From positions 10,159,483 through 10,223,482 of the forward strand of contig CM082582.2 in NCBI GenBank assembly GCA_040954595.2: DNA of 64,000 bases. Reading direction: 5' to 3'. This DNA is from Balanoglossus misakiensis (taxonomy: Eukaryota > Animalia > Hemichordata). Shown here piece after piece: positions 32,754-40,500 of this stretch. How positions within the stretch are numbered: the stretch's first letter is position 1; every line of letters starts with the position of its first letter. The notes below the pieces were generated by a model. It searched no databases and was not told the DNA's origin. It was given only the letters and a program-made list of their open reading frames with translations. The position numbers and the translations under genes are program-made.

Positions 32754-35700
32754 ATGTCTGACACATGGAGTGACATCGTTGCTCTGAAAAAGAAGCAGGA
32801 GAGTCTTAGGGAGCGTATGCAACGGAGGAAACGCGAAAGACAAAATCTTGGCGTTGGCTTTGGCTCAGGTGAGTGCCTTGAACTGACTCACGTGTCGATG
32901 TCGCGATGTGATATCGGTTGATCCATGGAGCTTCTAGACTACCCTGAGCCCTGGCTGTCCCATGTAGCTTACTAACTAATTGACTCTTTATCTTTGCAGA
33001 CGACAACCCAGCGCAGACGCACTCGGGTCCGCCTTCAAGAAGTACCAGTCCTGTTCCATCATCTTCAGTTTCTGATCTCGTGAAAATCGATCCGGAAGTT
33101 GAAAAGAGACTGCTTGAAGTGTTGTGTGATCACGCATTGACCTTACCAACAGATTCTCTGTCACTGCAGACCGCGGTTGCCAAGGTAATTTGCAGTTGTC
33201 TCGAAAATTGGCCAGTTAATTACTTTGAATGCTGTCATTTATGATAATTACCAGCACACATAAACATTGTCTGGTCAAGATTCTGCAAAGTGATCATTCG
33301 ATCTTCAGACTTCATTACACTGTCATACTTTTGCAGGGGTTGAATAAGGAAGTTACCCAAGCAAGTGTTGAGGGGATCTTGCAGAAGTTTTCAGCACAGG
33401 AACTTATAGAGTGAGTACAGTAACCATTGGCGTTTCCTGCAGTGTTTTAAATTATTGCAGTTGAAACTTACCTTTGTTGCTTCCTCTTGTCTTAGAATAA
33501 AAAAGGGTGGAACATCTGATGGTGAGGAATGTGTCATTGTGACAGTTGCTGACCATTCAAAGGTAATGTACATTAAAACTGATCATTTACTGCAACATTC
33601 TTACGTGTAGTGTTGTTGTTGTGTTTATTGTGGTGTACTTATGCTGATTGTTTTCATTTTGTGGAACGTGTAAGATTGGTACAAATATCAGAGCTGTCAC
33701 TGTCAAGTTCAAGGTGTCGGTTTAAACTCTACCATACAGTAACTTAGTGCTTTTATTTCCTGCCAAGACAGTTTGAAGATATCTGTCTTGGCCTCATGGG
33801 AAGCACACATTTCAAGTTTCATTCCGCCCTTTCAATTGCTTTCTTCCTCTTTATGAATAACTAACGCAACTGATAGTATGGTGTTTTCACTTCCCTTTAT
33901 CTCTGATTTTAACAGTTGACTGCAGTGTCCAATCAGCTCAATGAGAAAGACAAACCAACAGGGTCAAGGAAAAGGAAGAGAGAACGGTAAGTCTCATTCA
34001 TTTTACATGTATTGGAATGACTATAAAATTGTGGCATGATGACACATAAATCTGATTCTTTTTTTTTCTTCTGCTTTTAGTGATTCACCAACCAAGGATG
34101 AGGCTTCAGTGAAGCTGGTCACCAGACACAAGTCTGTGGATGCTGACCCGGACACCATAGAGAGCCTACTCTCAATGCCCTCTATCAAAGAACAAGAGGT
34201 AAGGTCGGCCATCTTGGCTTTCTCCCAAATGGGTACAAAAGAAGTAGGATTGGCCATCGTTGTTTTGGTTGAATGGAGTTTTGGCTAGTGAAGTGCTACG
34301 ACTGGCTATCATAGATTCCATTGGAGGCATCGATTGTAAACATGCTTCATACTTAACAAAGGTTTTACCAGGTGTTCAGTTGGTGTGAAAAGAGGATGTG
34401 ATTTCCATAATTCTTGTTACAATTCCAGACCAAGAAGATGGGCGAGGAAATCTTGGACCTGCTGAGTAAACCAACAGCCAAGGAGCAGTCGGTTGTGGAG
34501 AAATTTAAATCACAAGGTAATGTCCGTATATAATAATATGAACACACACATTCCAACATACACAGACACTTCTATATACAAACAAATTTTACGTTTATTG
34601 TTGAGAGTAACTTTCAGTCTCAATTCAAAAGAAACAATACTGAAGACACAATCTTTTTTATAACAAAATTATGTATTTCATGTACAGGCAACCAACTGAA
34701 AGAATTCTGTCCCCATGGTACGAAGGAAGATTGTATGAAGATCACTAACAGTTCTATGCCATGTGATAAGGTACCTTGCAGGGTTTTATTGTGTGGGCTG
34801 TAGTTTTATAAATGTACTTTCAGATTTTCATTAGTGTACTCAAACCATCATCCGAAACAAGATATCATCAGTGTGTTCTATTTTTATCCCCTACAGCTTC
34901 ACTTCAGGAGAATTATCAATCAACACACTGATGGTAAGCATTGCCCTAACATTTGTCATTAATTTGGAGATGTGTGTGTGTGAAGTTTTTCTTACAAGTG
35001 CTTTTTCAGTGCAGTACAACTTTGCGCCGAAATTGAGTAGTTGTGCGGCTCCATGAAAAACACAAGTTTCATGTATGTCTTTCTGAACCTAAAAACGTGA
35101 GATTGGATCTCATGCACTTTTTTTCTTTTTCAGAGTCCCTCGGAGATTGTTCTTTCCTGAACACGTGTTTTCACATGGACACATGCAAGGTATATGTTAT
35201 TATGTTTTGATTCTGGCCATCAATAATCACACAGTCTGTGCTATATCCCTATAATTTGTTGACAATTTCTGTATTGCAAACATGTAATACAGTAAACGTG
35301 TAATTCCTGTCTTTGTCTTCAGTATGTCCATTATGAGATAGACTACCAACGAACGCTACAGCCACAACCAAGCAAGACGGATCAGTCAGACAGAGGAATG
35401 GGAGCAGAAGACATAAAAGTCACTTTGTATCCTCCACAGGTTAGTCTTCTAAAACAGTGTTTCTGATTGGTCACTTCCTTCATGGGGTAGTATGCATTAA
35501 CCAATCAGGAACCTTAGTGTAAGACAGGCATTTTTTTTTGTCTTGAAGAAGTATTGGACGTAACTAGAAACGTTTTTTTTGGAATAATCCCACATCTTGC
35601 CACCTTTTTTTGTAAATAATAAAAAAAATTGTCTTCCAACAAATAGTGGATACAGTGTGACCTGCGTTCACTCAACATGTCGGTGCTTGGCAAGTTCGCG

Positions 35701-36893
35701 GTGATCATGGCCGACCCTCCGTGGGACATCCACATGGAACTGCCGTACGGAACGATGCAGGACGACGAAATGAGGCGACTGAATGTTCCCAGTTTGCAGG
35801 ACGATGGATTTATATTCCTCTGGGTCACTGGAAGGTAAACGTCCTATTTTTCATGCTCAGTGGTGACTACATATTGGAGTGTTCCCTAAGATCAAAATGG
35901 CCACCTGGTGGCCATATTGGATCATATCGCAAAACTCAAATTTACTGGTAGATTTCTTTGTACAATTGTAGTAGCAATCAAATGAACATCTCTCAGTGAC
36001 TACAGTAATATGATAGCTTTTCAGTTTATGTTAAAATAACGAAGATAATACAAAACAATGCAACCACTGAGGCTTGAGAAAAATCACCATAGAATCTGTT
36101 CTCTTTAATTCAGGGCCATGGAGTTGGGACGAGAGTGTCTGAACCTGTGGGGTTACCGCAGATGCGATGAGTTGATCTGGGTGAAGACGAACCAGTTGCA
36201 GCGACTCATCAGGACCGGGAGAACCGGTCACTGGTTGAACCATGGCAAGGAACACTGCCTGGTAAGTCAGTGAGTTGTGAGGTGAGTGAATGAATGAAGT
36301 CTGTGTCTGGATCAGGAGAAGTCCTACTTACAAAATTGTATCATCATCTTCTGTACATGTCTACGCTTACATGCACACTGTCTCAGAATCTTGACTCGGT
36401 ATTCACTTTTAGTTTTCTTCTCTGTAAAATGTCAGGTTGGCATCAAGGGCAATCTGAAGAACTACAACCGTGGTTTGGATTGTGACGTCCTAGTAGCTGA
36501 AGTGAGAGAGACCAGTCACAAACCGGATGAAATCTATGGACTGATAGAAAGGCTGTCGCCAGGCACCAGGAAAATTGAATTGTTTGGACGCCCTCACAAT
36601 GTTCAGCCAAACTGGTAAGTGTTGCAAAATAATTTTTTTCTGGCATCATTTGATTATCATTATCGTGAACATCTCAGGATGTGCTGAGTCTGATCTGTAA
36701 CGGAAGTCTCTAGGGTGTTGGTGCTTTCTCTCTGTCTGCATTTTTTACACTTGTGTTGTTTCCCCCCAACTCTAGGATTACGCTGGGAAATCAATTGGAT
36801 GGAGTTCATCTCTTGGATCCGGAGGTCGTTGAGAGGTTCAAGAAACTCTATCCAGACGGCAAAGTCATGAAACCGCCAAATAAGCCATCATGA
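32754..36893 (+). CDS. METTL3: N6-adenosine-methyltransferase catalytic subunit METTL3 (MT-A70), 15 exons, ~547 aa
   Basis: Exons 32754-32868, 33000-33184, 33337-33410, 33496-33562, 33916-33986, 34081-34198, 34429-34516, 34688-34770, 34897-34933, 35134-35189, 35323-35439, 35647-35834, 36114-36261, 36436-36614, 36776-36893. Leader [22 protein letters not shown]; two CCCH fingers ([11 protein letters not shown]...[33 protein letters not shown]); catalytic [16 protein letters not shown]; [19 protein letters not shown]; [44 protein letters not shown]. Confidence 0.97.
33677..33812 (+). ncRNA. Intronic box H/ACA sno/scaRNA, predicted guide for U2-Psi58 (5' hairpin) and U12-Psi19 (3' hairpin)
   Basis: 136-nt hairpin-hinge-hairpin-tail in METTL3 intron 4. 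5' hairpin: TGGTA/TACCA lower stem and GCTG.CACT/GGTG.CGGT upper stem. H box ACAGTA at 33736-33741. 3' hairpin: GTGCTT/AAGCAC lower stem and a perfect 10-bp GCCAAGACAG/CTGTCTTGGC upper stem. ACA at 33807-33809 plus 3 nt. In both hairpins 14 nt separate the upper stem from the box. Confidence 0.85.
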
Positions 36894-37347
36894 GGAGATA
36901 CAGCCAGTAAACACAAATGATGTACCAGTGCACTCGAAATTATCTCCCCCTGCCACCATGTTTACAAGTATTTTAAAGCTGAAGTCAACTTCTTGTCGTT
37001 TTTTACAAAATTTAACCCACATAACTTTTTCTGCGTATTATCTAAAATTTTGATCAAAAACTGTTGCTAGTGGAAAATAACGTCAACTTGGTCTAAAATT
37101 AAGGGACAGCCTGAAGATATTCAACCCAATAGAGACATGTAGCAGCCCGACTCGTAGACTTTCGTTGTAAGTTGATCAAGTCCTTAGGGAAAGTTTCCGA
37201 ATGTAAAATGTTTATCCGACAAAACATGCACTTTGTATACACTGTTTGAATTTTGCCATGTCTGCATAGTGATGTCCAATGAATGTTTTAAGTGAAAGTT
37301 ATTTTGTTTGTTTTGCTCTACCCTCAGCCATCTGTCAATTGAATCAG

Positions 37348-37559: not shown

Positions 37560-40500
37560 TAATGGGTTACAACTCATGAAAATCATCAAAAACTGACAAT
37601 TTTTTGATTCGGCCAAATTTGAAAATTTCATGATCTTTCAGTTTTCATGGGTTATAGCTCAGGAAAATCATCAAAAAATGACAATTTTTCGACTTTGCGA
37701 AAAGTCAAAATTTGGTCGATTTTTGAAAAAAAATCATGGGTTATAGCTCAGGAAATCATCAAAAAATGACAATTTTTCGACTTTGCGAAAAGTCAAAATT
37801 TGGTCGATTTTTGAAAAAAATCATGGGTTATAGCTCAGGAAATCATCAAAAAATGACGATTTTTCGACTTTGCGAAAAGTCAAAATTTGGTCGATTTTTG
37901 AAAAAAATCATGGGTTATAGCTCAGGAAATCATCAAAAAATGACAATTTTTCGACTTTGCGAAAAGTCAAAATTTGGTCGATTTTTGAAAAAAATCATGG
38001 GTTATAGCTCAGGAAATCATCAAAAAATGACAATTTTTCGACTTTGCGAAAACTCAAAATATGGCCGATTTTTGAAAAAAAATCATGGGTTATAGCTCAG
38101 GAAATCATCAAAAAATGACAATTTTTCGACTTTGCGAAAAGTCAAAATTTGGTCGATTTTTGAAAAAAATCATGGGTTATAGCTCAGGAAATCATCAAAA
38201 AATGACGATTTTTCGACTTTGCGAAAAGTCAAAATTTGGTCGATTTTTGAAAAAAATCATGGGTTATAGCTCAGGAAATCATCAAAAAATGACAATTTTT
38301 CGACTTTGCGAAAAGTCAAAATTTGGTCGATTTTTGAAAAAAATCATGGGTTATAGCTCAGGAAATCATCAAAAAATGACAATTTTTCGACTTTGCGAAA
38401 ACTCAAAATATGGCCGATTTTTGAAAAAAATCATGGGTTATAGCTCAGGAAATCATCAAAAAATGACAATTTTTCGACTTTGCGAAAAGTCAAAATTTGG
38501 CCGATTTTTGAAAAAAATCATGGGTTATAGCTCAGGAAATCATCAAAAAATGACAATTTTTCGACTTTGCGAAAAGTCAAAATTTGGTCGATTTTTGAAA
38601 AAATCATGGGTTATAGCTCAGGAAATCATCAAAAAATGACAATTTTTCGACTTTGCGAAAAGTCAAAATTTGGCCGATTTTTGAAAAAAATCATGGGTTA
38701 TAGCTCAGGAAATCATCAAAAAATGACAATTTTTCGACTTTGCGAAAAGTCAAAATTTGGCCGATTTTTGAAAAAAATCATGGGTTATGGCTCAGGAAAT
38801 CATCAAAAAATGACAATTTTTCGACTTTGCGAAAAGTCAAAATTTGGTCGATTTTTGAAAAAAATCATGGGTTATAGCTCAGGAAATCATCAAAAAATGA
38901 CAATTTTTCGACTTTGCGAAAAGTCAAAATTTGGTCGATTTTTGAAAAAAATCATGGGTTATAGCTCAGGAAATCATCAAAAAATGACAATTTTTCGACT
39001 TTGCGGAAAGTCAAAATTTGGTCGATTTTTGAAAAAAATCATGGGTTATAGCTCAGGAAATCATCAAAAAATGACAATTTTTCGACTTTGCGGAAAGTCA
39101 AAATTTGGTCGATTTTTGAAAAAAACCATGGGTTATAGCTCAGGAAATCATCAAAAAATGACAATTTTTCGACTTTGCGGAAAGTCAAAATTTGGTCGAT
39201 TTTTGAAAAAAATCATGGGTTATAGCTCAGGAAATCATCAAAAAATGACAATTTTTCGACTTTGCGGAAAGTCAAAATTTGGTCGATTTTTGAAAAAAAT
39301 GATGGGTTATAGCTCAGGAAATCATCAAAAAATGACAATTTTTCGACTTTGCGGAAAGTCAAAATTTGGTCGATTTTTGAAAAAAATCATGGGTTATAGC
39401 TCAGGAAATCATCAAAAAATGACAATTTTTCGACTTTGCGGAAAGTCAAAATTTGGTCGATTTTTGAAAAAAATCATGGGTTATAGCTCAGGAAATCATC
39501 AAAAAATGACAATTTTTCGACTTTGCGGAAAGTCAAAATTTGGTCGATTTTTGAAAAAAATGATGGGTTATAGCTCAGGAAATCATCAAAAAATGACAAT
39601 TTTTCGACTTTGCGAAAAGTCAAAATTTGGTCGATTTTTGAAAAAAATCATGGGTTATAGCTCAGGAAATCATCAAAAAATGACAATTTTTCGACTTTGC
39701 GAAAACTGAAAATATGGCCGATTTTTGAAAAAAATCATTGGTTATAGCTCAGGAAATCATCAAAAAATGACAATTTTTCGACTTTGCGAAAAGTCAAAAT
39801 TTGGCCGTGGTCGATTTTTGAAAAAAATCATGGGTTATAGCTCAGGAAATCATCAAAAAATGACAATTTTTCGACTTTGCGGAAAGTCAAAATTTGGTCG
39901 ATTTTTGAAAAAAATCATGGGTTATAGCTCAGGAAATCATCAAAAAATGACAATTTTTCGACTTTGCGGAAAGTCAAAATTTGGTCGATTTTTGAAAAAA
40001 ATCATGGGTTATAGCTCAGGAAATCATCAAAAAATGAAAATTTTTCGACTTTGCGGAAAGTCAAAATTTGGTCGATTTTTGAAAAAAATCATGGGTTATA
40101 GCTCAGGAAATCATCAAAAAATGACAATTTTTCGACTTTGCGAAAAGTCAAAATTTGGTCGATTTTTGAAAAAAATCATGGGTTATAGCTCAGGAAATCA
40201 TCAAAAAATGACAATTTTTCGACTTTGCGAAAAGTCAAAATTTGGTCGATTTTTGAAAAAATCATGGGTTATAGCTCAGGAAAATCATCGAAAAATGACA
40301 ATTTTTCGACTTTGCGAAAAGTCAAAATTTGGTCGATTTTTGAAAAAAATCATGGGTTATAGCTCAGGAAATCATCAAAAAATGACAATTTTTCGACTTT
40401 GCGAAAAGTCAAAATTTGGTCGATTTTTGAAAAAAATCATGGGTTATAGCTCAGGAAATCATCAAAAAATGACAATTTTTCGACTTTGCGAAAAGTCAAA

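Follow-up and report, generated by a model that had tools for sequence, protein, structure and literature searches.

Intron 4 of the METTL3 gene in the window (the whole 64-kb stretch of DNA analyzed here) contains a predicted box H/ACA scaRNA of 136 nt (positions 33677-33812, plus strand), delimited by its fold and by two vertebrate H/ACA models that align with it end to end at sub-threshold scores. We assign a probability of about 0.68 to the reading of this element as a real guide RNA that would direct pseudouridylation of U2 at position 58 through its 5' pocket and of U12 at position 19 through its 3' pocket. In vertebrates, these two jobs are performed by separate guide RNAs, whereas here both are predicted on one molecule; the element adds no new mechanism. 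The core of the sequence-only reading from which the analysis started, an intronic H/ACA guide for both sites, survived the use of real U2 and U12 (fetched target sequences took the place of those first used) as well as shuffle tests, and remains a prediction. The strength of the case is in the combination of features, not in the U12 pocket alone.

The METTL3 coding region (32754-36894, plus strand) comprises 15 exons, as defined by an exon model and a protein match. The translation of the model has no internal stop and is identical at 490 of 547 positions (90%) to METTL3 of Ptychodera flava (P0001, Pfam PF05063), which was the only match in a protein search with exon 2 (1 of 65 candidates). 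Because its closest protein match is a hemichordate one, use of the modification map of vertebrates here is an extrapolation. At 353 nt, intron 4 (33563-33915, plus strand, GT-AG) is indeed the longest of the 14 introns in the exon model. Introns 3-14, including intron 4, are skipped at GT-AG joints in contigs of sequencing run X3 (runs X1, X2, and X3 represent one sample from one study). The candidate element is located on the sense strand inside this spliced intron, as expected of a box H/ACA guide RNA.

The sequence has the H box, the ACA followed by 3 nt, and the four strands of the pockets exactly where they had been proposed, and the minimum-energy fold (-38.4 kcal/mol) has the complete hairpin-hinge-hairpin-tail organization. 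The 5' hairpin (33677-33734) is predicted to include a 5-bp lower stem, the pocket, an upper stem, and an 11-nt loop. The H box ACAGTA (33736-33741), located in the hinge, fits ANANNA. The predicted 3' hairpin (33747-33806) consists of an 8-bp lower stem, an open 7 by 6 nt pocket, a 10-bp upper stem, and an 11-nt loop, and is followed by the ACA box (33807-33809) and a 3-nt tail that reaches the predicted end of the RNA at 33812. In both hairpins, the pocket is 14 nt from the box, in agreement with the original description. Pockets of H/ACA guides are bipartite, form at least eight pairs, and place the target uridine 13-15 nt from the box (PMC5207380, PMC6049503); the two pockets here have 14 and 11 predicted pairs, each 14 nt from its box, and both predicted pairings are with spliceosomal snRNAs, which is the defining type of target of an H/ACA scaRNA. 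Full opening of all pockets costs 2.2 kcal/mol in a forced fold. The fold of the 136 nt has a z-score of -2.72, with 2 of 200 shuffles equally good, and is not distinctive alone, as 2 of 29 folding windows in other METTL3 introns have better z-scores.

The left strand of the 5' pocket, TATCAGA (33686-33692), is predicted to pair with U2 positions 60-66, and the right strand, TTAAACT (33722-33728), with U2 positions 57-51, each through seven Watson-Crick pairs. The proposed 7+7 pairing around U58 is fully Watson-Crick on a fetched, Rfam-verified U2 that is not this animal's own, and holds also for the U2[51-68] substrate as given in PMC6984369, the sequence of which coincides with the 51-68 stretch of the fetched U2. 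The U2 search motif, which itself selected for this stretch and is uninformative on variation there, was found at seven loci in genome contigs, two of which are full-length U2 according to Rfam, and at none in viral contigs. In the Rfam U2 consensus, U58 is a lower-case, weakly conserved position. Full-length, vertebrate-like U2 genes (L001:128-318 and L006:129-318) were observed on short contigs binned as Cetobacterium genomes, where they are likely host contamination.

In the 3' pocket, the left strand TTTCCT (33756-33761) pairs with U12 positions 21-26 through the six Watson-Crick pairs originally described. The right strand, CTCAT (33793-33797), pairs with U12 positions 18-14 through five Watson-Crick pairs, and its next G faces A13. 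Because U12 position 13 is an A, the right arm is 5 bp, not 8 bp as first claimed, and the 6+8 pairing is revised to 6+5. The last two G of the longer right strand (33799-33800) belong to the lower stem of the predicted fold, and on each side of the open 7 by 6 nt pocket, the outer nucleotide mismatches U12. Position 13 was left free in the U12 search pattern, which fixed positions 2-6 and 14-26; among the 70 U12-like loci fetched, it is A in 69, G in 1, and U in 0, and it is also A in the Rfam consensus. These 70 loci were kept from 72 with a 7-nt spacer (2 were dropped), out of 118 loci with the motif, the 46 with other spacers having been set aside. When 20 loci were checked against Rfam, 18 were recognized as U12, and the two misses were the dropped loci. 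The motif was also found at 10 loci in viral contigs. Among the 70 U12-like loci, the single one with G there is L104:173-326.

Run X1, which also contains the window, yielded a full-length U12 that differs from the U12 at locus L072 at 20 positions. The 16 listed differences are all between positions 34 and 120, and the remaining 4 are unplaced within the 30 nt at either terminus. Other U12s at a similar distance have 0-2 differences within positions 1-29, against mostly 3-15 in the last 30. These comparisons suggest that the U12 target is likely unchanged in this animal. Runs X2 and X3 gave no match to U12, which is no proof of absence.

Among the 88 uridines of U2 and U12, the best target of the 5' pocket is U2-58 (14 pairs versus 8 for the next best), and that of the 3' pocket is U12-19 (11 versus 9). 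The earlier statement that U2-Psi58 and U12-Psi19 are known vertebrate modifications is borne out by Table 1 of PMC7960923, where both are known human pseudouridines, as are, by our own count from that table, about 16 of the 88 uridines. A real H/ACA RNA with a 3' pocket aimed mainly at another target, in rRNA or at another snRNA site, appears highly improbable. The mismatched outer nucleotides of the pocket would be compatible with such a target, and our systematic scan covered U2 and U12, but in the human and Xenopus rRNA listing of PMC6984369, the two arm motifs occur only at separate places (two and three matches), as judged by a crude text search of a listing that is broken up by line ends and by letters marking modifications.

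Within the 64-kb window, the element holds the sole 14-pair pocket and is the sole H+ACA element with two pockets of at least nine pairs. None of 202 shuffled 64-kb strands contained a two-pocket H+ACA element with at least 25 pairs, a threshold equal to the observed total (14+11), and pure chance is therefore unlikely. The same strands contained 1,279 pockets with at least 11 pairs and 30 with at least 14 (register duplicates included), along with 92 two-pocket elements at 9+9 or above. The exact pattern of the 5' pocket was absent from all of 100 shuffles of the window, and the wobble-tolerant 3' pattern as first claimed was present in 25 of 100.

No Rfam family matched at the gathering threshold anywhere in the 64 kb (0 matches). 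In narrow scans, the models of SNORA79 (22.1 bits, 55 needed) and SCARNA14 (16.6 bits, 40 needed) aligned with 33677-33812 end to end, the best Rfam alignments obtained here. The targets of SNORA79 (RF00600) and SCARNA14 (RF00582) are U6-86 and U2-7 (PMC6984369). Because both the pocket sequences and the targets differ, these matches reflect the general H/ACA shape; identity with SCARNA14 was rejected on the pockets, and for neither family was the family score reached or the target shared. The models of SNORA11 (RF00614) and SCARNA21 (RF00602) were not listed even at E 10 in scans of the element, and single-hairpin scans detected no relevant Rfam family.

In the literature searched, we found no described guide with this target pair or this host, as had been claimed; the claim left out SNORA11 (also known as U107), the vertebrate guide for U2-Psi58, which was verified in yeast and carries CAB boxes (PMC6984369). 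In human SNORA11, strands TCAGA and TTA are 29 nt apart, like those in the 5' hairpin here, and 14 nt likewise separate the pocket from an ACAGNA H box. The loop tetramer CAAG (33704-33707) is at offsets 12-15 from the 5' pocket, the same as AAAG in human SNORA11. The comparison with the human guides was purely visual, with no alignment score behind the SNORA11 resemblance, and the SNORA11 pocket is presumed to lie in its 5' hairpin. The stems of SNORA11 differ in sequence from those of the element, no U12-19 pocket was seen in its 3' hairpin, and its human host is MAGED2, as opposed to METTL3 here. From this sequence resemblance, a distant kinship between the 5' hairpin here and that of SNORA11 is possible; orthology is only a lead because a shared target combined with the size limits of H/ACA RNAs (PMC5207380) could yield the same likeness.

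As previously claimed, human U12-Psi19 is assigned to SCARNA21/ACA68 (PMC7960923). By eye, human SCARNA21 contains the same strands, TTTCCT and CTCA, and forms 6+4 pairs, one fewer than the element, so that the correction at A13 is harmless to the case. The U12-19 pocket of SCARNA21 is in the 5' hairpin, whereas here it is in the 3' hairpin, and the host genes of SCARNA21 and SCARNA21B are CHD3 and DNAJC16, as opposed to METTL3. Xenopus SCARNA21 is predicted to target U12-19 and U2-54, and U2-54 was not modified in the yeast assay (PMC6984369).

That inactive second pocket, together with the finding that a single mismatch can switch a pocket off (PMC6984369) and the frequency at which 11-pair pockets and the 3' pattern arise in shuffled sequence, would fit a real H/ACA RNA with one working pocket. 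Such an RNA would most likely act on U2-58, as a counterpart of SNORA11 with the second pocket idle or degenerating. We regard this as unlikely, given that the 3' pocket has the exact 14-nt geometry, points to a known pseudouridine site, and combines the SCARNA21 strands with one more pair. The two-target reading is preferred in what follows.

Both proposed CAB boxes, CAAG in the 5' loop and GAAG (33775-33778) in the 3' loop, are present, although they do not conform to the ugAG consensus and retain only its AG. An NNAG tetramer occurs in 34% of random 11-mers from the window. By eye, the 3' loop of human SCARNA21 has GAAG, the tetramer found in the element, at the position where SCARNA21B has TGAG, and because the paralogues differ in this way, the loop tetramers here may plausibly be CAB boxes.

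The long form of SCARNA21 is wrapped in a C/D domain that guides methylation of a neighboring U12 nucleotide (PMC4914119). No flanking C/D domain for adjacent U12 methylation was identified here: intron 4 has four CTGA boxes, and the best antisense match of each is at some other site. A composite C/D-H/ACA form was rejected, the helix being short and the +5 rule pointing to A17, not G18. By eye, pairing with U12 positions 14-20 would be possible for the 7 nt in front of a C-like box ATGCTGA (33641-33647) upstream of the element.

An allelic comparison was possible over 33581-34505, where a second allele (run X2, same sample) carries 18 substitutions and 4 indels. None of these differences falls within the 136-nt element, and nine substitutions and a 5-nt deletion are concentrated in 33826-33899; the 3' flank of the element is the most variable part of intron 4. 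The invariance of the element has P = 0.007 under uniform placement and P = 0.21 by circular shift. The invariant run extends 96 nt upstream of the element, and a 160-nt invariant stretch is present in intron 6 as well. The pattern would fit constraint but goes no further, being weak once clustering is allowed for. This lack of significance under clustering is what could be expected of an unexpressed or dead copy (a relic, or a relocated duplicate, of a guide from another locus) or of a chance arrangement within the intron. We consider either of these quite improbable because the element, which sits in sense orientation within a spliced intron, has intact boxes, stems, and pockets, in a combination that 0 of 202 shuffles reproduced.

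If the element is a guide for both sites, the general biology of H/ACA RNAs (PMC5207380) suggests that the RNA would be trimmed from the spliced, debranched intron, bind dyskerin, NOP10, NHP2, and GAR1, and probably reach Cajal bodies through its NNAG loops. Each pocket would then open a short stem in its target (U2 47-66 and U12 4-23 according to the Rfam structures) and present the uridine; the 5' pocket is predicted to direct pseudouridylation at U2 position 58, and the 3' pocket at U12 position 19. METTL3 is most simply seen as a convenient housekeeping host for the candidate RNA. The proposed tie to the m6A writer found no support, and hosts and pockets of snoRNAs are often reshuffled (PMC6984369). 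A functional link to m6A was rejected as unsupported; in the table of PMC7960923, adenosine methylation of snRNAs is attributed to METTL4 and METTL16, not METTL3.

The suggestion that a single RNA serves both spliceosomes would not be a first, given the precedent of SCARNA17 (mgU12-22/U4-8), which is assigned to U12-G22 and U4-C8 (PMC7960923, PMC6984369); SCARNA17, however, belongs to the box C/D class, guides methylation, and has other targets than the element. The combination of U2-58 and U12-19 in one guide, and its METTL3 host, have likely not been described before. No guide with this target pair was found in the literature searched, which omits most subscription journals, and the same literature, with snoRNA databases outside the scope, contained neither a METTL3-hosted snoRNA nor a hemichordate guide. 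METTL3 is also absent as a snoRNA host among the entries listed in the supplements of PMC6984369 and PMC4914119. U12 is not mentioned in the available text of PMC3884663, and that of PMC8763049 contained nothing relevant to the question of guides.

Active guidance by this RNA would mean that a deuterostome outside the vertebrates has guided modification of U2-58 and of the minor spliceosome; in the literature searched, a guide for U12-Psi19 is described only in vertebrates. It would also be a clear case of one molecule combining two guide functions known from vertebrates, with pocket shuffling across a deep split that is invisible to Rfam models. Between Xenopus and human, the target is kept in only 39% of H/ACA families, and hosts change (PMC6984369). 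Rather unlikely, as we see it, is the further scenario in which the element preserves an ancestral deuterostome guide that was split in vertebrates, with SNORA11 keeping the 5' hairpin and SCARNA21 taking the U12-19 pocket. In the branch-site helix, U12-Psi19 corresponds to U2-Psi34 (PMC7960923), and under this ancestral scenario, pseudouridylation of the U12 branch helix would date back more than 500 million years and would at one time have been linked to modification of U2 via one transcript.

Several other features of the METTL3 locus were observed. A near-palindromic stretch of 43-47 nt in intron 12 (35887-35939) is matched at 80-90% by many unrelated contigs from the same sample and has the lowest folding z-score among the METTL3 intron windows; it is probably a small dispersed repeat or a transposon end. 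In intron 14, an H-type box at 36626 accompanies a 3+8 pocket match to U2-54 that is within the chance range and lacks a second pocket. Directly downstream of METTL3, a tandem array with a unit of about 65 nt, recognized by eye, occupies approximately 37640-39500 and extends beyond.
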